Source of the DNA: Candidatus Berkelbacteria bacterium
GTDB taxonomy: Bacteria; Patescibacteriota; UBA1384; XYA2-FULL-43-10; CAINNR01
Assembly (NCBI GenBank): GCA_037142675.1
Contig: JBAXAF010000002.1
Span: 13,300 to 77,299, forward strand
Direction: 5' to 3'
Length of the DNA stretch: 64,000 bases
The notes under the pieces were generated by a model. The model saw nothing but the letters and a program-made list of their open reading frames with translations. It ran no database searches and had not been told where the DNA came from. This document shows positions 21,571-60,897 of the stretch, in pieces. A program made the translations under genes and the position numbers. Every line of letters begins with the position of its first letter. Positions within the stretch are counted from its first letter, which is position 1.

Positions 21571-21654
21571 CGTCATTGCGAGGAGGTACGACGAAGCAAT
21601 CTGATCAAAATAGATTGCCGCGCCTCTCGCTTCACTCGATGACTCGCAATGACA
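21571..21654. repeat. MITE-like palindromic element, TGTCATTGCGAG...CTCGCAATGACA family (copy 1)
   Basis: terminal inverted repeats GTCATTGCGAGG / CTCGCAATGAC with internal GAAGCAATC...GATTGCCGCGCCT core; extended inverted repeats GTAACCACTCACTG/CAGCGAGTGGTTAC. Confidence 0.7.
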
Positions 21655-23878: not shown

Positions 23879-26800
23879 TCAATTATTTGGGTAAAACATC
23901 TTGCTTAAAAAGCCGAGTGATTTTTGCAGTGAATTAACAATAATGTCGACGACTGATTGTTGGATTTTACCGGTAATGGTTGTGGTGTCGTTCGAAGTTC
24001 CCATGTTCCCAGCGTTATCATGCGACACGGCCCGAAGGTGATAAATCTTTGATGGCTCAAGTCCGGAAGCAATGACTACATGGCTGGTCGAAAGCGCCAT
24101 ATCCTCTTTGGTTTTGAAATCATAATCAGATCCGCTGATTCCGGTTGAATATTCAATCTGACTTGTTGATGGTTCATCTGTTTGCCACGAAACAACTAAT
24201 TGCGCTTGTTGAGTTTGACCGAAGCCATTTGATTTTATTTCGACTGCAAGTGATGACAATTTTGGTGGTCGGGTGTCAAGCGGTGTTGTATAGGTGTTGG
24301 CATCTGACTCAACTTGATTTCCAAAGTTATCGACGCCTTTTGCTTTTAGAACATAAACCGATTTGTCCTGAAGGTCGGAAACCGTAATTTCGTGCGCTGT
24401 CTTATAATCAGCTTGCGAAGCGGTTTGTGCAGATGAGCCGATTGTATAAGAGACTATAGAAGTTGTCGCCACATTGGTATCCCAATTAAATTTCAGTGTC
24501 GTTGTCGGAGCGTCTTTAACTGTCTCAAAGCGGAAATTTGAGATCTTCGGCATGGTCAAAGTATTAAATGTATAATCATCCGAAATAAGCTGATTATTAT
24601 CCGTATCAGTCCCGATTATTTGAAAATGATATGTGGCCGAGTCGTCGAGGCTAGTCAAATTGATTGAGTGGCTAGTAGTTTGCGAACCGGATTTGTCGGA
24701 AATATTTCCACCATAGTTTGGAGTTTTTCCATAATTGATTGTCGAGGTGGCAATGGTTGTGGATGTCCAAGAAATTGTTGCGGCGTTCAAAGTGATATTT
24801 GAAACTTTTACATCGGAAATTTTCGGTCTTAGTCCGGTCTTAAACGAGTAGACATCGCTTCGTCCCTGGTTACCGTCTGAATCCTCCCACATTGCTTGGT
24901 AATAGTAGATCGTCTCAGGGTCAAGGCCAATGACTTCAACTGAGTGCTTTTTGCTCTTCTCCGGTTGACCAAATCCTTTGGCATTTTTCAAATCGTCTTT
25001 GCTTTTAGCAAAATAGCCGAAACTTGAACCTTCGCGGTCGGTTTCCCAAGAGATAGTAGCTGAAAATGCCTTTGGCGAAGCAGTTGGGGCCTCTGTTATG
25101 GCCGGTGGGTTAGTATAACGACCGGTCGGTGTCAAATTAACTATCGACGAGGCAACTGAATGTTGACCGGCATTGTCTTTCGATTTGACATAGTAATAGT
25201 ATTTTTGGCTTGTCAGGTCGGTGTCGGCATAAGTACTACCAGCGGTTGTGCCGACCGAGGAATAATTTGAGCCGTCAGTCGAACGATAAATTTCATAGCC
25301 GTTAAATCCGGTGCCGGTGTTTGCTGGCGCAATCCACTTTAGAGTTGCAGCAAACAGCGAAGCATCTCGGTTTGAAATATCAAAGATTTGCAAACTCGCC
25401 GGTGCGCCTGGCGCGGTGGTATTGGCAGTGAAGGTTGTTTTGGCGCAACCATCGGTGTCGGAGTTACCGGAGATTGCATTACAGGAATCAAATGAATAAT
25501 TTCCCGCTTCATCTTTGGCAACGATATAGAAGGTATTTTCTCCTTGTTGGGTGGCATATGGTCCGGCTGGAAGTATTCGGTCGGTCACAAACGAAGTATT
25601 CGACGGTGTCGGTAGCGCATTTATTGAGTAATAGTAACCCGATATTGTTCCGCTTCCGGTTGACGGCTCATCCCAGGAAAAAGCGAAACTGTTTGAATCA
25701 GACGATGACGGTGTGACAGTCAAATTCTTCGGTGCAGTCGGCGCGGTGTTATTGTAATAAAAGTTTGTCTGAACCGGAGTCGGATCGACATTGCCGGCGT
25801 TGTCAACGGCACGAAGATAAAAGATATTTGTGCCGGTTCGGTAAGCGACATCACCAAGTTCCAGTGATCCGCCGGTCATTGTTGCCGACCAATCGGAATA
25901 AATGCCGTCAGTTGCGCCTGTTTTGTATTGATAACCATAAATGCCACTTCCACCGGTGTCGCTCGCCATATCGGCACCCGAAGTCGGCCAGATGAAAGTA
26001 AAGGAATTGGTGCGCGTAAAGCCCGATGGTGAAACCGAAACATATTTTGGTGAATCCGGAGTTGCCGTTTCATATTTATAGGTGAAGATGGTTGAGCCGC
26101 TCCCGATATTACCGGCATTGTCTTTTGAGCTAATGCGTAAATAGTAAGTTGAGCCGGAAGCCAAAGAACCGGCGGTATAATTCAATCCTGTTTGGTAACT
26201 GCCGGCCGTATGCGGATCAGCAGAATTCGAAGTTCCGAAATAAACATAGTAACCGGCTGTGCCGGAAACCGTATTGGCGTGGCTGCCATCGGTGGCATCC
26301 GTGGAGGCGTTAAAAGTAAAATACGGAGCCGCGTAGTTGTGCCAATCGCCGGAGACAATATCGCTTCCACTAGAAGATTGACTTTTGGCAGTTGCCAAAG
26401 TCGGATCCGGTGGCGCCATATTATCCTGATCGTATTTGTAAGTGTATACGGTTGCAGCCGTAGAAATATTACCAGCGACATCTTGGGTTTTTATTCGCAA
26501 ATAATAGCTTTGATTATAGTTAGTCGATAAATCGCTTGCCGTGTAGTTTGTGGTAGTTTGCCAGACACTCGGATCGGCTGAAGCATTTGTACCGAAATAA
26601 ACATAATAACCGGCAACTCCCGACGGAGTTATCCCGTTTGCATTGTCACTTGGCGCAGTCCACGAAAAGTAAGGTGTTGGATAGTTATACCAAGTCGCCC
26701 CGTCAAGTGTCACGCCACTCGAAGTGCTTTTAGCGGTAATTGAGCTTGGATTATTTGGTGGTAAAAGATCTGGATTGTAATCAGGTGATGTAATGCCGGA

Positions 26801-27447
26801 AAAGTTAATCCAACCCCAGTCTTCGCTCCAGGCATAACCGGAGAAATTTCCTCCTGTAGCTATCACCACATTGGCGCCGGTCGGACTTGCATTAAAATCA
26901 ATATAGCCGCCGTTTAGCATTTTCGCCTTTCCTGATAAATGTCCGGAAGTGTCAGCGACTACCGGTCCCGAAGGATTGCTATCTGAGCCAAAGCTAATCC
27001 AGCCGAGATCGCCACCCCAGGCATAACCGCCCATCTGGCGAGAATAATTATCTATCGTCACATTGCTATGGTAAGTTCCTGCGTCAAAGTAAATTTTTTC
27101 GCCAGTGTTAACAATAGTTCCGGTAGTTCCCACAACCGCTACCGCACTGCCGGTAGCCTCAGAGTGCTTACTCGAGAGAAACATACCGCCAGCTACGATA
27201 ATAAAGCCGCAAAATATTGTGAATGCCGTCCAGCCGATTTGTTTGCGGTAAGGTTTTGCTTTTTTGGTAATCTTTGCGAGCCAACTATTAAATTCTGCCG
27301 GACTGGTAGAATCTTGATTTATACTTTGTCTTTTATGATTAACTTTTAGAGAAAATGACAAATGTTTTTTAAAATTACTAAAAACTTCACAAATCTTTTT
27401 TGTGATCTGTCGATAATTTCGATTAATTTTGGATATTAGCTTTTTCA

Positions 27448-27448
<1 letters not shown>
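23879..27448 (-). CDS. very large cell-surface protein with multiple FN3-like repeats (N-terminal membrane anchor)
   Basis: 1189 aa; repeated ~90-aa modules with YYxxxxxxDxAGNxS-type patterns; start codon overlaps RT stop (ATGA). Confidence 0.6.
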
Positions 27449-28642
<1,194 letters not shown>

Positions 28643-28666: not shown

Positions 28667-28742
28667 TGTCATTGCGAGGCTTTGCGAAGCAATCTTTTTT
28701 GTGTTTTTTATGGGATTGCCACGCCTGCTGGCTCGCAATGAC
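28667..28742. repeat. MITE-like palindromic element, TGTCATTGCGAG family (copy 2), in the TR-RT spacer
   Basis: TGTCATTGCGAGGCTTTGCGAAGCAATC...GATTGCCACGCCTGCTGGCTCGCAATGACA. Confidence 0.7.
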
Positions 28743-28776
28743 ATACTCATTTTAGGTAGAAAAGGCATCCCCGTTG

Positions 28777-28906
28777 CCTGACACAGCGAACATTGTTGTT
28801 ATTGCCCTCTCCATTGTTGTTCGTGTTGCCATTATTCAACTGGACGTTCCACGCGTTAGATCCAACGCTGTTCTCCGTCGCCGACCAGTAGTTGTTGGAT
28901 GGCTGA
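28777..28906 (-). other. DGR template repeat (TR)
   Basis: 130 bp ~90% identical to VR (29499-29628); all 13 mismatches are at TR adenines on the coding (minus) strand; AAC/AAT codons in TR. Confidence 0.9.
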
Positions 28907-29083
28907 TGAAATGCTGCCGACTTTTGTTGCTCGGTTTTCTATCTCTGGCAAGCAGAGTAAGAAAACTTGTAATTATTCCTTTTGGAGCGGCAGCCGTAAC
29001 GGGGCGGTCGCACTCCCGATCATAACCCCGCACAGAGGCGAAGAATACGAGCGGCTCTTGCTATGCCTTTTCTACCTAAAATT

Positions 29084-29431
29084 TTAATGTGCTTTCGACC
29101 AATTCATCCATTTTTCGAACTGTTTCGATATTTCAATCAGTTGCTCAAAAAAGAATTTATAACTTTGTATTTTCATTGTCTTAAGCTCGTGCAGCATTCT
29201 GGCTTTAAACTTAATTCTCTCAATGATTACCAACCCCTCCTTTAATTTGTTTGTTTTGTCTTCAAGGTTATTGGCTTCAACAATTATGTCCATCAACTTT
29301 GTCAGCAATCCCTCTATTTCCTCGGCTAAGCCGTATTTGTAATCTTTCGGGAATCCTCGTGCCAACCGGAAGAAGTATAAATTTATGTCGTAAACGCTTT
29401 TGTAAATTGGAAGGTGGTCATATCTTGCCAT
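29084..29431 (-). CDS. avd: DGR accessory variability determinant (Avd)
   Basis: 115-aa helical protein starting MARYDHLPIYKSVYDINLYFFRLARGFPKDYKYGLAEEIE, positioned between target gene and TR as in canonical DGRs. Confidence 0.75.
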   Translation of the reverse strand: MARYDHLPIYKSVYDINLYFFRLARGFPKDYKYGLAEEIEGLLTKLMDIIVEANNLEDKTNKLKEGLVIIERIKFKARMLHELKTMKIQSYKFFFEQLIEISKQFEKWMNWSKAH

Positions 29432-29495
29432 AAAAATTTTCGCTCGACCGCCTTCGGCGGAAACAATAATAACTAAATAATCAAATTACCCTGCG

Positions 29496-30536
29496 TTACC
29501 TGACACAGCGAACATTGTAGTTACCGCCCTCTCCAAAGTTGCTCGTGTAGCCATTATTCAACTGGACGCCCCACGCGTAAGATCCAACGCTGCTCTCCGT
29601 CGCCGACCAGTAGTTGTAGGATGGCTGAGTCAGATTCCAGTAAGCACCATCAATGAAAGCCTGCATCAGCTCGTTTTGGGTTGGTAAACGCCAGACACCG
29701 GCACCGGCAGGGTTGGCACTGCTGTTGCAAAGCTGTGCAGCGGTTTTATTACCGACAGCCACATTGGCTGCGCCGGTAGCGTTCCATGTCCAAGAAGATC
29801 CGCCGGAAGCGACAAATTGAATTACTCCGGCATTATTCTTAAGGCATTGGCTCCAAGTTAAACCGGTTAGCGGGTCTTTATTGGTATTTCCGGCCCGATT
29901 ATCGTCACCGGTTACCGGAGACGAGTTGGTTGTAAAAGTTAAAGAACAGTTGTTGCCGGTCGTGCCACCGTCCGCCGGATCAAGCACATCGGTAGAGCAA
30001 GGGCCACCGGAAACTGGCGCATAATTACCGGAAATTTGCGTGCCATCATTTGACCAAGCGACTTTACCACTTTTAACATCGCCGGCTCCGGCAACCGTGC
30101 CGGCACCAGTCAAGGGATATGTTGCCGAAGGATATTGACCGGTTAAGCCAACGCCAAAGAGGGTTCCACTTTTGACTGTTCCAACTGAAAGATTCCCTAA
30201 ATTATATGTGCCGCTGGTTGCGCTGCGCGAACCGTTTGCGGTGAATGTTTTTGTAGATGAAACATCACCAGCCCCAGCCGTCGTGCTCGGTGTCCACTTG
30301 GCAGCAGTTTTGATACGGTTCCAATAAGTTCCCCAGTCTGGTGTGTCCGAGTCGGAACCGAAGGTTAAACCCGTAAGATCTGTATAAAGCGTTTTCATGC
30401 GTGAAGTTACTCCGGACTCCGGTGTGCTACCGGATTGTTCGGCAAAAACTTTGTAAGTTCCAAAAACTCCGGCGCAAAGTAGCACTGCCACAGCCGCGAT
30501 GATGAACTTATTCCTTTTTTTCATATTTGCCTCCAA
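29496..30536 (-). CDS. DGR target protein: secreted/surface protein with C-terminal DUF1566/C-type-lectin-fold variable region
   Basis: N-terminal signal/anchor; C-terminus GLTWSQC...WRLPTQNELMQAF...YWSATESSVGSYAWGVQLNNGYTSNFGEGGNYNVRCVR; VR at 29499-29628 matches TR. Confidence 0.85.
   Translation of the reverse strand: MEANMKKRNKFIIAAVAVLLCAGVFGTYKVFAEQSGSTPESGVTSRMKTLYTDLTGLTFGSDSDTPDWGTYWNRIKTAAKWTPSTTAGAGDVSSTKTFTANGSRSATSGTYNLGNLSVGTVKSGTLFGVGLTGQYPSATYPLTGAGTVAGAGDVKSGKVAWSNDGTQISGNYAPVSGGPCSTDVLDPADGGTTGNNCSLTFTTNSSPVTGDDNRAGNTNKDPLTGLTWSQCLKNNAGVIQFVASGGSSWTWNATGAANVAVGNKTAAQLCNSSANPAGAGVWRLPTQNELMQAFIDGAYWNLTQPSYNYWSATESSVGSYAWGVQLNNGYTSNFGEGGNYNVRCVR
29499..29628 (-). other. DGR variable repeat (VR) at the 3' end of the target gene
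   Basis: aligned to TR; VR has T,G,G,T,T,G,T... where TR has A on the coding strand (Y/S/G/F codons versus AAC/AAT). Confidence 0.9.
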
Positions 30537-30550
30537 TTATAAATTCTTTT

Positions 30551-30616
30551 TGTCATTGCGAAGTACGAAGCAATCTCATTCCACACAGATTGCCGCGCCT
30601 GCTGGCCCGCAATGAC
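30551..30616. repeat. MITE-like palindromic element, TGTCATTGCGAG family (copy 3), immediately upstream of target gene start
   Basis: TGTCATTGCGAAGTACGAAGCAATC...GATTGCCGCGCCTGCTGGCCCGCAATGACA. Confidence 0.7.
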
Positions 30617-30714
30617 AAACCCTAATCCTCGCAATGTAAAACTATAAATATTAAAAAAGACACTCAAAAGAGTGCTTGAATTACCAGTTCTAAATGCAAA
30701 AACGGAGAGCTCCT

Positions 30715-30745
<31 letters not shown>

Positions 30746-30990
30746 GAGTTCGGAACTTCGAACTCGAGCTAAAGCGCGCTCGTTACAGTTACGTTTAATG
30801 TTCCCTCCTCTATATAAAACACAGTCTTTGAAATGATTACTTATAATTATACATCAACTAAACCAATAATACATCATTTATTATTTTGTTGTAAATGCCT
30901 AGAAATCAAATTAATAGCAACTGGGATTTTCTTAGGAATTATCGTATCAATTTGGCACTTTAATCGTATCATTTTGATACGAGAAAGAGA

Positions 30991-31866
30991 TTAATTGCTT
31001 TGCCCGATTTTCCAGACTCCCTTTTCTCGAAATGCCGCCAGAGTTTGACGTTTTGCCATATTTAGAAGGACATTCAGGGGCTGTTTTGTATTTTTTGCGT
31101 ACTCAGAAAGTGAAATAATTTTGAGACCTTCTAAATAAGCAATTCTTTTATGTAAAGATTCCAATAGTGCAAGATAGAGAACTTTTTCCATGTCTGCAGT
31201 TTTTTTGTTTTCTTTATATTCCTGAAAGGTTTTGTAATATAGATGTTTCTCTTTATCACGAATAATCACAGGTGGAAAGCCAATCTGTAGCAGGAGATAA
31301 TTAATTAAAACCCTGCCAATTCGGCCATTACCATCGCAAAATGGATGAATATGCTCGAATTCCAAATGAAATTTAGCAATCTTTTCTAGAAAATAAGACA
31401 TGTGATCGCCGGAATAATCAAGAAGTGCTGATTCAACCATAGTTGCCACATGTTCCGGTGCTGGCGCAATGTGCGTTCCAACTCGGACATATTCTCCGGC
31501 AGATCTAAATATACCGGCAATTTTATCATCAATTCCAGCAATCAACATCTTGTGTAAAAACAAGATTAATTCTTCATCCAAATCACGGCTAAGAGTTTTG
31601 TCCTTGATATATTCAAAAACTCTAGCTAAATTTTTAGCTTCATAAACTTCTCGAACAGATACTTTGCGCGCAACTTCAAGTTCTAATAAAATCTTTTCAG
31701 TTTCCTCAATGGTGAGGGTTGAATTTTCGATAGCATTTGAGTTGTAGACTGATTCCGGAATCTCGGCTTCAGCTAGCATATCCAAAAGAGATCCTTTGCC
31801 GATTTTCAAAGTATCATACTGCTTTTTTAAGTCATTAATTTTTTGTTTGATATCTTTATTGATCAT
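30991..31866 (-). CDS. Fic/DOC family protein (AMPylase-type)
   Basis: Fic motif HPFCDGNGRIGR; 291 aa. Confidence 0.8.
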   Translation of the reverse strand: MINKDIKQKINDLKKQYDTLKIGKGSLLDMLAEAEIPESVYNSNAIENSTLTIEETEKILLELEVARKVSVREVYEAKNLARVFEYIKDKTLSRDLDEELILFLHKMLIAGIDDKIAGIFRSAGEYVRVGTHIAPAPEHVATMVESALLDYSGDHMSYFLEKIAKFHLEFEHIHPFCDGNGRIGRVLINYLLLQIGFPPVIIRDKEKHLYYKTFQEYKENKKTADMEKVLYLALLESLHKRIAYLEGLKIISLSEYAKNTKQPLNVLLNMAKRQTLAAFREKGVWKIGQSN

Positions 31867-31899
31867 GGTTAAATCTTATCATATTAACGATATATTGTC

Positions 31900-31950
31900 A
31901 ATACACCGTGAATATAGTCTACTTTGAGTATATATTCACGGTGTTTCTGA
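31900..31950. promoter_or_regulatory. 14-bp-arm inverted repeat between the NTase gene end and fic start (operator or terminator)
   Basis: ACACCGTGAATATA-gtctactttgag-TATATTCACGGTGT. Confidence 0.4.
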
Positions 31951-32003
31951 TTATTCAATGACATTTAGACTAGCTATAGAGGGCTTATTTTCGTTATATG
32001 GTG

Positions 32004-32648
32004 CTATTTATTAACTTTTGCCAAATAATTTGTCACGGTTTCTGAGAGATACTTTTTAACTAATTCGAAACTAATATCATCATCGTGCTTAAAGAGAATT
32101 GGTTCTTCCAGAATATCATCAAAATACACTAGGCTTTTAAGGATTAGGTTAACGTCAATTGTAGGAAACTTTTCTTTTGTTAATTTGAAAAGCTCTTCAA
32201 GGCTTATTTTGTGAAGAATAAAATACAAATCAACATAATCTTTAAGAACAGATCGGCTTGTAATTGCTGAGAGCTTCATAGCACCAATGTCTTCGAGGGA
32301 GGCCATTTTAAAATTATCTTCATCCAACAGTGGATTAATCGGTTTGTATGGAAAAGCAAAGAAGCTAATTTTAATTGTGTCGTCAATGATAAATGTTAGA
32401 GTATCTTTTTCTTCCTGAATTTTTGCAATTTGATGATTCTGAAAAATTTGCTCGACTTTTTTGGTCAAGTCTTCAGTAGAAAAAGATTGTTCAGAAAAGA
32501 AATCAAAATCAATACTATCTCGATGCCCCAGTTGCAATGCTAGAGCGGTGCCACCGGCAAGATAAAAATCATCTTTGAAAACTTTAAAAAGAGGTAGAAT
32601 ATTTATACGCTTTTGGTCTAGAATATCCCAATAAAATTGTTTATCCAT
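32004..32648 (-). CDS. nucleotidyltransferase of the AbiEii/DUF1814-like family (putative toxin/defence component)
   Basis: N-terminal LAGGTALALQLGHRDSIDFDFF resembles the GGTAL...RxSxDxD NTase motif of AbiEii-type proteins. Confidence 0.5.
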   Translation of the reverse strand: MDKQFYWDILDQKRINILPLFKVFKDDFYLAGGTALALQLGHRDSIDFDFFSEQSFSTEDLTKKVEQIFQNHQIAKIQEEKDTLTFIIDDTIKISFFAFPYKPINPLLDEDNFKMASLEDIGAMKLSAITSRSVLKDYVDLYFILHKISLEELFKLTKEKFPTIDVNLILKSLVYFDDILEEPILFKHDDDISFELVKKYLSETVTNYLAKVNK

Positions 32649-32928
32649 GAAGTACTCTTTCCAGCTTAGAAATGGGTTTGATATTTAAATAAAGCGACCA
32701 AAGAGCTAGAGACTTTTTGTTCCATTGACCAGTTGGAATCTGCTCGGCTATTTTTTGTATCTCATCCAAACTATATGTTTCGAACAACCAATCTGTAGCA
32801 TCTTCGGTGCCGTAATTTAAAACCTGGGCAATAATTAATTTTTTGTGTAATTCTAAATCGATCTTATTGATGTCATAAGACCAGAGAACATTTGCAACAG
32901 ATTTTGGAATTTTTTCGTTGGTTGTCAT
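32641..32928 (-). CDS. small partner protein of the nucleotidyltransferase (putative antitoxin/regulator)
   Basis: 95-aa ORF overlapping the NTase start by 8 nt. Confidence 0.35.
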   Translation of the reverse strand: MTTNEKIPKSVANVLWSYDINKIDLELHKKLIIAQVLNYGTEDATDWLFETYSLDEIQKIAEQIPTGQWNKKSLALWSLYLNIKPISKLERVLHG

Positions 32929-33004
32929 ACCTAAAAATTACTTGTCTAACAGATATATTATAGCATATTTGGGGCTATTTATATAGGGGAAAATGATATT
33001 AATC

Positions 33005-33817
33005 CTATTCCCAAATCTCTCCGGTAATACCATTTACTTTGATCTTGTCGATAGTCGTAAATTGTATACGAAGATCGCTCGGGTTGTCCTCGTCTTCTAA
33101 AAGTCCTTTGGTCATTCGTTTGGCATAGATCATGGTGGCTAGAGTCGGGCAAACAATCATGATAATCGGGAAGGTCTTGGAAATTTCATCCCATTCGTAG
33201 CCATTGTAAAGCTCTATAAAATTTTTGACTTGGCGCCTGATCGAATAACGAGGCAGAGTCGGCGCAATTATCGCAAAAAGAAAATATTCCGATATTGTCC
33301 GTTTGCTGGCTTTCTTTTTCTTGAGTCTTTTAACCACCGGATCCACTTTATATTCAGTCAAAAAGTTAAAACGATACTCGGAATTAGCCAGGTCCGTTGC
33401 GGTAGCAATCAAATAGGAGAGTTCATTTTCTTCACTAGACTCTCGGCTTCTGTTTGCCGCAATTTTCAAACCCAAAGCAATCTCCCCGACGAGCTGGCAT
33501 TTTTCGATAAAATCGGTTGAGCGGTCTTTAAGCCTATAAAACTTTCTTAGAACCTCGATCGAGCAATCATCTTGAGTTTTTAAGAATCTGATTCCATTTA
33601 ATCCCAGGTAATAGATCGCCGGTTTGGTATTTTCTCCAAACTTATTTGAATAGATTCGATTAAGGTATTCTTTTTGTGTTAGGTCTTTTAACCAGTCGTT
33701 GATTCTTTTGTGATATTTATGATTGAGGAATGCTTGAATTTGTTTTCGATCTAAGAATTTGTATTTGTATAGTAGTTTGAGTATTTCTTGTTGTTTTGTA
33801 GTTATTTTGTTGGTCAT
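33005..33817 (-). CDS. putative replication-relaxation / wHTH mobile-element protein
   Basis: N-terminal QQEILKLLYKYKFLDRKQIQAFL wHTH-like segment; mobile-element context. Confidence 0.3.
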   Translation of the reverse strand: MTNKITTKQQEILKLLYKYKFLDRKQIQAFLNHKYHKRINDWLKDLTQKEYLNRIYSNKFGENTKPAIYYLGLNGIRFLKTQDDCSIEVLRKFYRLKDRSTDFIEKCQLVGEIALGLKIAANRSRESSEENELSYLIATATDLANSEYRFNFLTEYKVDPVVKRLKKKKASKRTISEYFLFAIIAPTLPRYSIRRQVKNFIELYNGYEWDEISKTFPIIMIVCPTLATMIYAKRMTKGLLEDEDNPSDLRIQFTTIDKIKVNGITGEIWE

Positions 33818-34094
33818 TGTTTTGAATTAGTTGTTTATTTAATTTGCAATTTACCATTACTACCTACACCGACCAAACCTATATTTGTAAAGGTAAGTGA
33901 TACAAGTCGCATATCTTTTAAGGCTAAATTAAACATATTTCAGTATCAGTTCACTGATACAATTAAATACCTGATTATTCGGCTTGTCAACAGTCTTATT
34001 TAAACTTTTACCCTCTTGACATTGTGAATATAACAATAGTATACTATGAATATAATCACAATAAGGAGGGTATACGGGGACTTCTCATCTTCAA

Positions 34095-34415
34095 TTGATA
34101 GGCCAGAAAAACACCTTGTTTTCTACGGTGGAAATCAATCCCTCTGCCCATATTAAAGCTGAGAGGCCAAGGCCAGAAGCCTTAATTGCTACACATAGCA
34201 AAACCTTTGAGAGTGCCTTGAGCAGGATCTTCCCTGGCAAACAAGAGGAAACCAGGATCCAAAAGGCGCGCCTAATTATGGGAGATGATGTCAAAGATTT
34301 ATCGGATGAAGATTTAGAGGTTTTCCTTACCGAGTTTCAATATCTGATCGACTGCTGGTTAGACGAATACGAAAAACAAGTTTTCAATAACAAAACATTA
34401 AGAGAATTAATTTAA
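34095..34415 (+). CDS. hypothetical protein upstream of recombinase
   Basis: 106-aa ORF, 15-nt gap to recombinase start. Confidence 0.3.
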   Translation: MIGQKNTLFSTVEINPSAHIKAERPRPEALIATHSKTFESALSRIFPGKQEETRIQKARLIMGDDVKDLSDEDLEVFLTEFQYLIDCWLDEYEKQVFNNKTLRELI

Positions 34416-34429
34416 TAAAGGAGGGATGA

Positions 34430-36145
34430 ATGGACTTTCCATCACCAATCAAAGGGGAGCAATCAGAAAAAGCGGTCGTTTATATTCGAGTATCGACCGA
34501 AGAGCAAGTCGAAAACTATTCGCTAGGCACTCAAGAAGAGATTTGCAGAAAAGAAGCCGATAAACGAAAGCTCGAGGTTGTGAAGGTTTTTCGCGAAGAG
34601 GGACGTTCCGCAAAGACGATTACCGGACGACCTACACTAATTGAAATGCTCGAGTATTGCCGAAAACACAAAAGAGAAATCAGTTCGGTTATTGTTTACC
34701 GACTGGATCGAGTTTCCCGTCAAACATCTGATTATTTGGTGATTAGAAGAAAACTGGTGGAATGCGAAATAGAACTAATTTCAGCCACAGAGCCAACCGG
34801 CAACAGCCCGACAGAAAAGTTTGTTGAAACTATGTTGGCCGGCTTTGCCCAGATGGATAACGATATTCGAAGCGAACGAGCCAAAAATGGGCTTAGAGCC
34901 AGATTCCAGGCTGGCTTAACCAGTTATGTAACGATGGGCTATGATAATAAAAGTGGCTATACAACAAAAAATCCCGAAACATTTGATAAGCTTCAAGCTT
35001 CTTGGCATTTATTTTCCACAGGCACGAAAACACTGCGAAATATTGCCAATATTCTAACTGAACAAGGAATTGCCCAAAGACATAAAGGCGGGCGTATGCT
35101 CCCACAGCAGGTTAACAGAATGTTTCGCAATAAATTCTATGCCGGTTATGTCATCTCTAAAAAATATGGGCAAGAAGTCCAAGGCCAGCATCCACCAATG
35201 GTTACCGAGGAATTATTCTACAAAGTCCAAGCGATTCTAGATGGTAGAAACCACAACATCTCAAGGCCGCTAGCAAAGCGCCATCGAGACAACCCGAATT
35301 TTCCCCTGCGCCGTATCGTCAAATGCGAAATTTGCGGTACTTCTTTTACTGGAGGGAAAAGCAAAGGCAAGCGCGAATACTATGGCTATTACTTTTGCCG
35401 AAACAGATGCAAAGAATCGAATGTCGCTTCGGAAAAGATAACCCATGATACCACCGACTATTTGGGTAAAATATCCCTAACAGAAAAAACCGCCAAATTG
35501 TTTAACGCTTTTCTGCGAAGAACTTATTTTAGCAGGGCTAAAACCCTACAAAAAAGACGAGAGCAGGCCGATGACGAGCTAAAAAAGTCATATGAAACAC
35601 GCCAGGCATTAATCGATAAGAATCTGACCGGCATATACTCCGACGAGATCTTTAAGGAACAAAACAATATGTTAGAGGCAAAAATAAAGAGTATTCAATT
35701 CACTAAAAACGATGAATTACTTGATAAATATGCTCTTGGGCCGATTACTCAATTTGTTGAAACCAAGCTAACCGATCTGCCGAAAACCTTTGAGACATCT
35801 ATAAAAAAAGATCCTGAACCGGATCTCGGACAGATCAGAATGCTCCTGTGTTCGATATTCCCCTCTGGAATGCCATATGGCCGAAATGGCTATTCGAACA
35901 CAGAAATCAGCCCATTTTTCAGAGCGATTTTGGACTTGCAGCCCAAGAATTCTAATCTTGTCTCGTTTGGCGGAGAGAGTGTGATTCGAACACACGAGGA
36001 TAGGTATCCATGGGTTTACCACCCATTCCCTTTGACCACTCGGGCATCTCTCCGCTTAAGACTTACAGCGAGCCGTGCCGGAGCCCAACCCGACAATCAT
36101 CTCCCCGTGACGTCGTGTCACAGCCTTGATGACATCAAACATTGA
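34430..36145 (+). CDS. large serine recombinase (integrase); 3' end of ORF runs antisense through tRNA-Tyr (C-terminal ~60 aa probably spurious extension)
   Basis: resolvase catalytic domain AVVYIRVSTEEQ, recombinase domain, zinc ribbon CEICG...CRNRC, coiled-coil; no stop codon until 36145. Confidence 0.8.
   Translation: MDFPSPIKGEQSEKAVVYIRVSTEEQVENYSLGTQEEICRKEADKRKLEVVKVFREEGRSAKTITGRPTLIEMLEYCRKHKREISSVIVYRLDRVSRQTSDYLVIRRKLVECEIELISATEPTGNSPTEKFVETMLAGFAQMDNDIRSERAKNGLRARFQAGLTSYVTMGYDNKSGYTTKNPETFDKLQASWHLFSTGTKTLRNIANILTEQGIAQRHKGGRMLPQQVNRMFRNKFYAGYVISKKYGQEVQGQHPPMVTEELFYKVQAILDGRNHNISRPLAKRHRDNPNFPLRRIVKCEICGTSFTGGKSKGKREYYGYYFCRNRCKESNVASEKITHDTTDYLGKISLTEKTAKLFNAFLRRTYFSRAKTLQKRREQADDELKKSYETRQALIDKNLTGIYSDEIFKEQNNMLEAKIKSIQFTKNDELLDKYALGPITQFVETKLTDLPKTFETSIKKDPEPDLGQIRMLLCSIFPSGMPYGRNGYSNTEISPFFRAILDLQPKNSNLVSFGGESVIRTHEDRYPWVYHPFPLTTRASLRLRLTASRAGAQPDNHLPVTSCHSLDDIKH
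35968..36053 (-). tRNA. tRNA-Tyr (anticodon GTA), type II with long variable arm
   Basis: reverse complement GGAGAGATGCCCGAGTGGTCAAAGGGA ATGGG TGGTAAA CCCAT GGATACCTATCC TCGTGTGTTCGAATCACAC TCTCTCCGCCA; D-arm pattern as in bacterial tRNA-Tyr; position 33 is G (atypical). Confidence 0.7.
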
Positions 36146-36537: not shown

Positions 36538-36626
36538 CGTCATTGCGAGGAGCGATTAAGCAACGTGGCAATCTTTTAAATAGAGCTTGCCACGCCTCAG
36601 CCGATGGCTGATGGCTCGCAATGACA
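36538..36626. repeat. MITE-like palindromic element, TGTCATTGCGAG family (copy 4)
   Basis: TCGTCATTGCGAGGAGCGATTAAGCAACGTGGCAATC...GCTTGCCACGCCTCAGCCGATGGCTGATGGCTCGCAATGACA. Confidence 0.7.
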
Positions 36627-59176: not shown

Positions 59177-60897
59177 GAGAATATTATTGCAGTTATAATA
59201 ATATATACGACACTCGAGCCAGAATTTGGCAACCCGGATGACGAGATAATTTTAACATCACTTTGAACAATTGGCAATATGCGATAGTTGTCGCCATATT
59301 GGGACAATATTCCAGCAATTTGCACTCGATCGCCAACAGACATCCGCGGCTTATTAATTCCCGTGCCGGTTCGAATTGAAACCTCAATTTCTCCCCACCG
59401 GGGGTCACCTCCGGAGACACTCCCATGAATGTAAAACGTGCTGCCGGAAGTTTTTGTTACGGTTCCCACGACTGAAATATACTGACCTTCAAAATTCTCA
59501 GCGATTTGGGAAATGGTAGTTTTCACCGATGCCGGCGGTGGATGGGTCGATAAAATCCAGATATCAGAAAGCTCGGAAGTTTTCAGCCGCCGCTCACCAT
59601 TGATTGATCCTAGTTCGCCTGTCACTTGGATTTGATCTCCGACACTTAAAGCTGGAAATAATTTGTCATAACTATAAATTTGAACGCCGGAGATTCCGTC
59701 CTGAATATAAAAATACTGCGATGATAATTTCCCTGGCACAACACTGACAGTACCAGTGACTTGCAATGCAGTGCCGTCCGGTTGGTTTCTGGCGCCGGCA
59801 ATATCGGTTTGTAAAATCGGCGCGTCTTGATCTGGTACATTAACTTCAACAGTTAAAATATTCTCCGCTGCCGGTGTTAAAGTTGTCGTCCACTGCCAAC
59901 TATCGGTGAATTTAGAATAACTTTGACCGCGATTGGTTTTTCCGTAAGTAACGGCAGATTTTATGTCTCCACTTGGATCAATTAAATTTGTCGTATCTCC
60001 GGTGTCTGTTAGACCAATTTTTATTTCCGGATTTTTAAAAACCCGATATTCTTTGGCTTTGACAATTGTGCTAATTTCGAATGTCCCGGCATCTAGTTGC
60101 CAATTTATCAGATCGATATCGATGTCGGAAGAATTATAAAGTTCAATATATTCATCCGCCGAACCGGTTGCCGGCTGCGGCAAAAGTTCGTTGATATAAA
60201 TTTTGTCAGAATAAATTACTGTTGTTGGCAATATATTTTCGCTGCCTCTTGTTATTGGAACTATCTGAAAATCATTCGCGTCATTAATAGTATCAATCCC
60301 ATTTGGAATTCGAGAGATTGATTGCCCCTGATTTGGTACTGCCGCATTATTTGCCAGTGGCCCAAATGTAACTCGATCAATTTCAATAGTGTTATTTCTC
60401 AAAACCAGTGTTGCCCCACTGTTTGCCAGCCAATTAATACCAAGATTACAAATATAATATTCGTCATTCCTCGGGCACATTGCCATCGATAATGGTTTTT
60501 TATATTCCGTTCCACTGCCGGTAATTTTTACCAGTGAATAATCAGCCAAATTGAAATCTGAATTACTTGGATCATAAAGTTCCACCCATTCTATATCTGT
60601 CCCACCAGAAATTTGATTTGGATAAATTTCATTAATCACAATGTAATCACCGGCGGCTTTGGCTTTCGGTGATAAAACAAAAATGACGCCGATAAAAAAT
60701 AGCGCCATTATTGCGTAAAAAAATAATCCAAATGCAATTTTCCCCCACCCCTGTTGCATAAAATTATTATAACACAAATTAAAAAACACTGCGAGGAAGC
60801 TAAGTGGTCCCGAGGCCTTCGGGAACTTTAAGCTCCATGCACAGTGCAATTTTCCCCCAACGGCAAGAAAACAAAAAACCTTCGAGTAATTGCCCAA
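59134..60897 (-). CDS. surface protein with two lamin-tail domains (LTD) and C-terminal membrane anchor
   Basis: INEIYPNQ...EWVELYDPS and YINELLPQP...EYIELYNSS LTD signatures; C-terminal hydrophobic helix. Confidence 0.6.
   Translation of the reverse strand: MGNYSKVFCFLAVGGKLHCAWSLKFPKASGPLSFLAVFFNLCYNNFMQQGWGKIAFGLFFYAIMALFFIGVIFVLSPKAKAAGDYIVINEIYPNQISGGTDIEWVELYDPSNSDFNLADYSLVKITGSGTEYKKPLSMAMCPRNDEYYICNLGINWLANSGATLVLRNNTIEIDRVTFGPLANNAAVPNQGQSISRIPNGIDTINDANDFQIVPITRGSENILPTTVIYSDKIYINELLPQPATGSADEYIELYNSSDIDIDLINWQLDAGTFEISTIVKAKEYRVFKNPEIKIGLTDTGDTTNLIDPSGDIKSAVTYGKTNRGQSYSKFTDSWQWTTTLTPAAENILTVEVNVPDQDAPILQTDIAGARNQPDGTALQVTGTVSVVPGKLSSQYFYIQDGISGVQIYSYDKLFPALSVGDQIQVTGELGSINGERRLKTSELSDIWILSTHPPPASVKTTISQIAENFEGQYISVVGTVTKTSGSTFYIHGSVSGGDPRWGEIEVSIRTGTGINKPRMSVGDRVQIAGILSQYGDNYRILPIVQSDVKIISSSGLPNSGSSVVYIIITAIIFSWITLPILLKKLRI

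Follow-up and report, generated by a model that had tools for sequence, protein, structure and literature searches.

The locus treated here is a diversity-generating retroelement (DGR) lying in a 64,000-nucleotide stretch of DNA from a Candidatus Berkelbacteria bacterium (contig JBAXAF010000002.1; hereafter the window). Among the closest described systems, the DGR of Bordetella phage BPP-1 is organized as mtd-avd-TR-brt, i.e., a target gene, an accessory gene, a template repeat (TR), and the gene for a reverse transcriptase (RT). The Berkelbacteria locus shares with it this gene order, the four-helix bundle of Avd, and the I/LGxxxSQ motif of the RT; in both, the TR and the variable repeat (VR) present A-to-N differences only at TR adenines, mostly in AAC codons, and the VR occupies the 3′ end of a gene for a C-type-lectin-fold target. 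Unlike the phage element, however, the one described here is chromosomal in a bacterium of the Candidate Phyla Radiation (CPR, Patescibacteria), its target is an Lcl_C/DUF1566 protein and not Mtd, its TR-RT spacer contains hairpins resembling miniature inverted-repeat transposable elements (MITEs), and its RT gene is broken by a GA repeat together with another such element. Moreover, the initiation of mutagenic homing (IMH) sequence and the target hairpin can here be identified only tentatively.

LdtA, the target of the Legionella pneumophila DGR, is a lipoprotein on the Gram-negative outer membrane, whereas the target described here belongs to a CPR cell and has no more than a hydrophobic helix at its N-terminus; we know of no simple sequence repeat (SSR) reported in the RT of that Legionella element. 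The two targets belong to the same class (DUF1566 or "CLec2", category d, in the available sections of Wu et al. 2018, PMC5758913). The locus is also akin to the "DGR clade 2" of Patescibacteria, being cellular, aquatic, restricted to Patescibacteria, and associated with small DUF1566-type targets, as far as the accessible part of Roux et al. 2021 (PMC8144416) describes that clade. In these portions of both papers, CPR-type DGRs with DUF1566-class targets are presented as common in Patescibacteria, and our element is an ordinary member of that type.

The second group of systems to consider is that of the SSR contingency loci (Helicobacter CT/GA tracts; Neisseria, Haemophilus, and Campylobacter; phasevarions). 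Here as there, a perfect tract lies within an open reading frame (ORF) or after its start codon, its length is polymorphic in near-identical genomes, and ON and OFF alleles coexist, the OFF alleles being found in both frames. In contrast with these loci, the gene that would be gated here is the polymerase of a targeted hypermutation system rather than a surface or modification gene, which would place a switch atop a mutator, and the hosts are uncultured environmental CPR bacteria known from assemblies. Taken as a whole, we consider it probable, with some reservation, that the locus is a DGR whose RT is gated by slipped-strand phase variation at a hypermutable GA tract.

A retroelement active in natural populations

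The pairwise alignment proposed in a first-pass annotation, which had been made from the sequence alone, gives 118 identical positions out of 130 (90.8%; ungapped comparison on the minus strand, offset 722), in line with the identity of about 90% over 130 bp that it had reported. It had counted 13 mismatches, and the exact number is 12. All of them are located at TR adenines on the coding (minus) strand, as had been claimed; they consist of six A>T and six A>G changes and, the TR containing 42 A in 130 nt, the chance of finding 12 out of 12 on adenines is 3.8e-7 (hypergeometric). Nine of the 15 Asn codons (AAC/AAT) of the TR are altered in the VR, where they become TAC (four times), AGC (twice), GGC, GGT, and TTT, and thus encode Tyr, Ser, Gly, or Phe; these are the replacements that had been listed. 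The same TR/VR pair was recovered independently by a general repeat search of the window, and a search with TR chunks in which A was treated as N revealed no second VR in the whole window.

The homology extends 5 nt beyond the stop codon of the target, with a single non-A mismatch (28776), at the position where IMH and IMH* would diverge. The final 16–20 nt of the VR and the TR are identical, and their flanks diverge thereafter (TAACGCAGGG vs CAACGGGGAT), making these segments the candidate IMH and IMH*.

The VR corresponds to the final 43 codons of the target ORF. At the C-terminus of the target, Pfam recognizes Lcl_C (formerly DUF1566; PF07603, residues 218–346; 57.1 bits for a cut-off of 34.9). 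A sequence search against the PDB gave only noise, so the fold assignment had to use an AlphaFold2 (AF2) model, built with 56 homologues, in which the predicted local distance difference test (pLDDT) exceeds 90 over the C-terminal domain. Queried with this model, Foldseek returned as its best PDB match the C-terminal domain of Legionella Lcl (8q4e, E 3.4e-5); dozens of C-type lectin-like domains ranked after it. The C-terminal domain therefore models as a C-type-lectin-like fold, and the earlier placement of the VR in a DUF1566/C-type-lectin-fold domain agrees with both the Pfam match and the AF2 model. Calling the target "secreted" or "surface" has the predicted N-terminal hydrophobic helix as its sole ground.

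The accessory protein scores above the gathering cut-off of Pfam bAvd and also matches NCBIfam DivGenRetAVD (E 2.3e-13; 50 bits, under the curated cut-off of 80). The RT carries the two signatures of the DGR clade, LPIGNLTSQ ([LIV]GxxxSQ motif) and YVDD (YxDD); when its two parts are joined across the break described below, with the insert removed, it aligns with the Bordetella bRT (8ub7; phmmer E 1.6e-44) over its full length and collinearly through the junction. The order target-avd-TR-RT is the one previously indicated, and the VR lies at the 3′ end of a C-type-lectin-type target ORF. A single family feature is lacking in the window, namely an RT encoded by one intact ORF, and this is found in an allele from another sample. 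The GenBank names of identical proteins place the locus in Candidatus Berkelbacteria metagenome-assembled genomes (MAGs). Its assignment as a chromosomal DGR of a Candidatus Berkelbacteria bacterium is secure.

Exact-protein look-ups with Avd and the 3′ ORF of the RT, together with one metagenome scan, provided about 20 independent same-species assemblies (from ENA, JGI, Logan, and two NCBI MAGs); VR and tract variation were read from their consensus sequences. Over the 19,370 nt along which L001 aligns with the window, there are 14 mismatches and a single gap. All 14 mismatches are VR positions with an A in the TR, and the gap is the RT tract (17 vs 20 units); L002, L003, L004, and L005 display the same pattern. 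At least six VR alleles are found in lineage A, which has the TR of the window, and the TR is identical in every assembly containing it; lineage B, which is 98.5% identical and possesses a TR allele of its own, likewise presents at least six VR alleles and an invariant TR. In total, at least 12 VR alleles stand against two TR alleles. VR and TR differ only at TR adenines in every allele (18 of 18 differences in L008) bar that of L152, a lineage B assembly whose VR (2810–2914) bears a 3-nt deletion with a surrounding cluster of non-adenine differences, unlike the other alleles. Indels adjoining AAC repeats are known in DGRs, according to the available sections of Wu et al. 2018 (PMC5758913).

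The DGR has thus recently been active in nature: its VR varies and its TR does not. Population-level VR diversity is also the activity criterion given in the accessible part of Roux et al. 2021 (PMC8144416). The first-pass annotation would have given up the DGR if mismatches strayed from TR adenines or if a dead RT went with a uniform VR; the VR of natural populations varies just at the TR-adenine sites, and the outcome favors the DGR.

A length-variable GA tract in the RT gene

The same annotation had described the DGR as complete. In the window, however, a (GA)20 tract adjoining a MITE-like insert divides the RT between two ORFs whose frames differ. Residue 124 (…EFVHKL) is followed by the insert, then (GA)20G, then TT-ATG-ACA and the remaining RT; the 3′ ORF begins at this ATG, 3 nt past the tract, and the GenBank polymerase annotation at the locus covers only a 218-aa C-terminal piece. 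The tract corresponds to a surface loop of the RT, directly before the YLKMD (motif A) strand. As in contingency loci, it is a perfect tandem array inside an ORF, with a unit length indivisible by 3. With units of 2 nt, two of three tract lengths break the frame: the 227 downstream codons are in frame at n = 12, 15, 18, or 21, and in the +1 frame at n = 20. That the frame is broken in the window can be read directly from the sequence.

According to Tandem Repeats Finder (TRF), the window contains only two dinucleotide arrays, both within the DGR cassette, one in the RT gene and one in the operon leader, and both have the common 5′ context AACTCGAG. In an AF2 model of the in-frame RT (pLDDT 85.9; predicted template modeling score, pTM, 0.79), the insert and the ER repeat encoded by the tract protrude, as a helix-loop-helix modeled with low confidence, from a core with pLDDT > 90. 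Full-length natural RTs bear inserts of 30–48 aa at this loop, and the corresponding empty site in L166 is cacAAACTCGAgagag.

The length of the RT tract varies within the species. The lineage A assemblies have 20, 17, and 17 units and, in L002, where the tract reaches the contig end, at least 29; in lineage B, 11 units in seven assemblies, obtained by three pipelines (ENA MEGAHIT, JGI, and NCBI MAG), and 12 in one. Among the lengths 20, 17, 12, and 11, only n = 12 is in frame, and the contig that has it (L150 = L008) contains an uninterrupted RT, called by JGI as a 434-aa protein (P0126). Over 5,974 nt, this contig differs from the split n = 11 allele of L149 by one single-nucleotide polymorphism and one GA unit. 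In- and out-of-frame alleles thus occur in near-identical genomes, as in contingency loci. Tract aside, both halves of the RT are intact and identical across assemblies. A search of 5.8 billion proteins with the RT listed near-identity matches to the 227-aa half only, the best full-length matches among them being 82–83% identical; the 434-aa in-frame protein was recovered through the JGI contig and a protein cluster listing.

These length differences might be sequencing or assembly artefacts, the true gene being in frame everywhere. Illumina sequencing is indeed prone to stutter at dinucleotide repeats, the tracts interrupt several contigs, and the contig of L002 ends in (GA)29. We nevertheless hold this to be highly improbable: n = 11 comes from seven assemblies and three pipelines and n = 17 from two assemblies, the differences between 17 and 20 and between 11 and 17 amount to 3–6 units, beyond the size of stutter, and tracts of 22–41 nt are well under the read length and k = 141.

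Many short contigs end exactly at a GA tract, at their 3′ ends (L160, L161, and L002) or their 5′ ends (L155, L160, L162, and L004). The Logan contigs L160 and L161 stop at (GA)11+G, the k = 31 branch point between n = 11, which is in frame in that lineage, and n ≥ 12. Such ends hint at mixed lengths within a sample and are no proof of them.

Tracts of this kind are also present in other DGR RTs. Many of the closest RT homologues have (ER)n at the same loop, encoded by a pure GA run wherever the DNA could be read, and two of them (P0013 and P0042) carry there an in-frame MITE-like insert along with RE repeats. Among the relatives, the loop tract is in frame in L166/L147 (n = 17), L148 (n = 6), and L009 (n = 13), and out of frame in L159 (n = 13), L144/L145 (n = 12), L010 (n = 7), and L069 (n = 9); L069 seems to have its in-frame counterpart in P0027. 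The out-of-frame alleles occur in both frames, some lineages needing one more unit and others one less, a pattern consistent with random slippage but not with a directional recoding signal. In L048, an (AG)8 tract lies at a third site of the RT and the frame changes there.

More distant RTs (45–50% identical), from MAGs labelled Nomurabacteria, Patescibacteria, deltaproteobacterium, and Gammaproteobacteria, have (GA)27, (GA)22, (AG)16, or (GA)5 immediately upstream of the conserved N-terminus. Where the tract is (GA)16–27, it sits between an upstream ATG and this N-terminus, and in two of the distant RTs no ATG codons are present other than those upstream of the tract, which are in another frame. 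An ATG upstream of a tract and out of frame with the gene body is the classic layout of a phase-variable gene.

In 125 cellular or metagenomic DGR loci of other species, eight of the nine sense-strand (GA)≥7 tracts fall within the RT gene or the 200 nt upstream of it, a region comprising 19% of the bases (binomial P ~1e-5), and no dinucleotide besides GA reaches 7 units. Among 80 viral DGR loci (416 kb), there is no dinucleotide repeat of 5 units or more, which rules out the GA tract as a universal DGR feature.

By the established DGR mechanism, the RT, with Avd, would copy the TR RNA into cDNA while misreading template adenines, and the cDNA would replace the VR, rewriting up to 15 Asn codons on the predicted ligand-binding face of the Lcl_C/DUF1566 protein. 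If the RT tract changes length by slippage, it would act as a phase-variation switch: most cells, with an inactive RT (the window, at n = 20, being an OFF allele), would keep their current VR, and an in-frame minority would diversify it. We infer that no RT is produced from out-of-frame alleles, that within a clone the switching is rapid and can be reversed, and that VR turnover follows the ON fraction. Beyond this species, we propose only tentatively, as a possibility falling somewhat short of even chances, that a sizeable group of cellular DGRs, mainly of the Patescibacteria type, have phase-variable mutagenesis: GA tracts in the RT gene, whether in the loop preceding motif A, between the RT body and its start codon, or elsewhere, would form together with a further tract in the operon leader a heritable and reversible switch, turning hypermutation on in a minority of cells and holding the VR fixed in the others.

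Several observations weigh against a switch. The species' in-frame allele comes from one assembly only, and the one unit separating it from the seven n = 11 assemblies corresponds in size to Illumina stutter or to an error in the consensus. Tract heterogeneity within a sample is only hinted at, and the RT would have to work with a 35-aa insert. The OFF lengths 11, 17, and 20 are each one unit below an ON length, which could hint at directional recoding, although both classes exist in other lineages. The main difficulty is that high VR turnover is found precisely where the consensus RT of the lineage is out of frame; this requires either that in-frame cells form a substantial minority or that the out-of-frame gene is expressed.

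The latter would make the tract a throttle instead of an on/off switch, out-of-frame alleles being still expressed. This could occur by slippage at the RNA level, the polymerase adding or dropping a unit, or by a 2-nt shift of the ribosome with re-pairing of the Glu/Arg tRNA; it could also occur through a two-piece enzyme made of the N-terminal fragment and the 227-aa fragment initiated at the ATG after the tract. VR turnover in lineages A and B, despite an out-of-frame RT in 11 of the 12 assemblies with a complete tract, would be explained equally well in this way. Moreover, the ATG directly after the tract is conserved in the Berkelbacteria subclade, the break sits in a loop tolerant of large inserts, and the three OFF lengths share a single correction (+2 nt, or −2 for the ribosome). 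On the contrary, L144 (n = 12), L010 (n = 7), L048 (n = 8), and L069 (n = 9) need the opposite correction, and therefore no single directional mechanism fits; a programmed directional frameshift, suggested by the OFF lengths lying one short of ON, was dropped for this reason. Furthermore, more distant relatives have no Met after the tract, and the GA run, which lies only 3 nt before the ATG, matches a Shine-Dalgarno sequence poorly. We regard a throttle as unlikely.

Another explanation would be that the RT is a decaying pseudogene, the repeat and the MITE-like element being damage, and that the VR diversity arose earlier, from an intact minority, or from an RT acting in trans. The frame is indeed broken in the window and in most assemblies, and the available sections of Wu et al. 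2018 (PMC5758913) indicate that surveys discard many DGRs over premature stops. Degenerate relatives also exist, L037 and L043 having lost residues 120–265 and L144/L145 having a second frame change. In lineage C, where the RT is out of frame, there is little VR turnover, which decay explains as well as a switch does. However, among broken-frame assemblies, 10–21 VR changes are accompanied by zero other substitutions in 19 kb, so mutagenesis postdates the insertion and is very recent. The preservation of both RT halves speaks against decay too, as does the confinement of long GA tracts to RT genes and not to their flanks, which decay does not predict. As for a trans-acting enzyme, no second RT is present in the 64-kb window. 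Decay is in our view distinctly improbable, and we retain slipped-strand gating of the RT as the favored reading.

In the related RT genes of L037 (650–1233) and L043 (1769–2277), which are 77–78% identical in the N-terminal part, the deletion begins at the position of the GA tract, suggesting that deletions, too, arise preferentially at the tract or MITE site.

Leader, inserts, and surroundings of the cassette

The features of the cassette and of its neighborhood are collected in Table 1. Upstream of the target, a leader (30650–30900, minus strand) is conserved in four lineages and contains, in order, a promoter-like site, the invariant GGAGGGAA, a 10-bp hairpin, the second GA tract, a terminator-like hairpin, and a second terminator. 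The length of its tract is 14, 12, or 11 units in the assemblies. In the first terminator-like hairpin, the last GAGAG of the tract pairs with CTCTC and a T-run follows; the second presents compensatory stem changes between lineages. No canonical start codon follows GGAGGGAA, and the leader could be a small RNA or an attenuator. At gathering level, Rfam found only tRNAs in the window and no family for the leader. A relaxed Rfam search of the cassette gave a sub-threshold RT-17 match within avd (E 0.28), taken as chance. Our guess is that the leader tract tunes read-through into the operon; this second polymorphic tract may add a layer of control.

The MITE-like elements form a family with termini TGTCATYSCGAG...CTCGSRATGACA, of which the window holds three copies (28667–28743, 30551–30617, and 28173–28277) and two half-sites (21643–21654 and 36615–36626). 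Like the Rickettsia palindromic elements and other MITEs, the copy in the RT gene is a palindrome (105 nt) with a 7-bp target-site duplication, inserted in frame in a surface loop; unlike the Rickettsia elements, it belongs to a separate sequence family, as its TGTCATYSCGAG termini indicate. Comparable in-frame inserts are found at this loop in P0013 and P0042, so that such elements seem to be drawn to the edge of the GA tract. Another copy fills the TR-RT spacer; in Bordetella, this spacer provides the cDNA-priming spacer RNA.

Table 1. Features of the DGR cassette and neighboring genes (positions in the window).
Feature	Position	Strand	Description and basis
Target gene	29496..30524	minus	342 aa from ATG, 346 aa from TTG at 30536; N-terminal hydrophobic helix and C-terminal Lcl_C/DUF1566
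VR	29499..29628	minus	Ungapped comparison with TR; last 43 codons of the target
GC hairpin	29448..29460	minus	CCGCC-GAA-GGCGG, 5 bp, ~36 nt 3′ of VR; candidate DGR target-site hairpin or terminator
avd	29084..29431	minus	115 aa; Pfam bAvd PF22296, 44.3 bits, cut-off 40
TR	28777..28906	minus	Intergenic; ungapped comparison and repeat search; homology runs on to 28772
MITE-like inverted repeat, TR-RT spacer	28667..28743	.	Fills the spacer; long hairpin, RNA fold z = −2.9
RT 5′ ORF	28094..28642	minus	RT residues 1–124 (from METYFTY), then insert, ER repeat, and 13-codon out-of-frame tail; tblastn frame −1
MITE-like palindromic insertion in RT gene	28173..28277	minus	105 nt = 35 codons, in frame; 7-bp target-site duplication AACTCGA; empty site in L166
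RT GA tract	28134..28174	minus	(GA)20G, 100% matches (TRF); downstream RT in +1 frame
RT 3′ ORF	27448..28131	minus	227 aa, YLKMDIKSFF to thumb, with LPIGNLTSQ and YVDD; Pfam RVT_1
Promoter-like site	30866..30895	minus	TTTACA-18-TATTAT at leader head, upstream of target; 10/12 consensus matches only; block kept in lineages A–D
10-bp hairpin	30743..30768	minus	Perfect, CTCGAGTTCG/CGAACTCGAG, directly 5′ of leader GA tract; conserved in four lineages
Leader GA tract	30717..30745	minus	(GA)14, ~190 nt upstream of target start codon; TRF, 14.5 copies
Two terminator-like hairpins	30660..30721	minus	30721–30705, then 30675–30660
MITE-like inverted repeat, leader-target	30551..30617	.	TGTCATTGCGAA...CCCGCAATGACA, between leader and target start; absent from site in lineages C and D
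Fic	30991..31866		
AbiEii toxin	32004..32648		
DUF6922	32641..32928		
Replic_Relax-like protein	33005..33817		
Large serine recombinase	34430..36145	plus	

Beside the DGR lies a mobile or defence islet (30991–36145), made up of the last five genes of Table 1; in assembly L152, an rve-family transposase takes the place of Fic. The 3′ end of the recombinase ORF overlaps a tRNA-Tyr (35968–36053, minus strand). Integration at this tRNA was considered and set aside, no att-like repeat of the tRNA region being present elsewhere in the window. ARAGORN calls this tRNA-Tyr (86 nt) and a 94-nt tRNA-Gly(gcc) at 59500–59593, neither of which the Rfam tRNA model reports at gathering level; the tRNA-Gly, being long, may be a false call or may harbor an insertion. 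On the other side, a 1189-aa fibronectin-III-rich protein (23879–27448, minus strand) begins exactly at the RT stop codon and keeps this place in lineages A–D; it contains no VR and may be co-transcribed with the DGR.

Implications for DGR mutagenesis

By itself, the DGR adds one more example to a class already well known, although its activity in the wild is documented with unusual clarity. To our knowledge, how DGR mutagenesis is controlled, and how the endless scrambling of a good variant is avoided, is largely unknown. A slippage switch in the RT gene would, if real, be a simple answer to this question at the level of the population. It would constitute a second-order contingency locus, of a kind filtered from DGR surveys as "broken" RTs: in the available sections of Wu et al. 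2018 (PMC5758913), candidates with premature stops were discarded, and surveys dropping such RTs would undercount functional DGRs. A keyword look in the portions at hand of Wu et al. 2018 (PMC5758913) and Roux et al. 2021 (PMC8144416) yielded no mention of frameshifted or repeat-gated RTs, and a full-text literature search, within the texts it reached (the hankyphage paper included, Paul et al. 2017 outside its scope), no report of repeat-gated DGR RTs.

A repeat-gated RT would also offer a natural design for switchable DGR-based mutagenesis tools. Finally, if gating is confirmed, it would establish a testable link between two bacterial generators of diversity, the simple-sequence contingency loci and retroelement-driven hypermutation.

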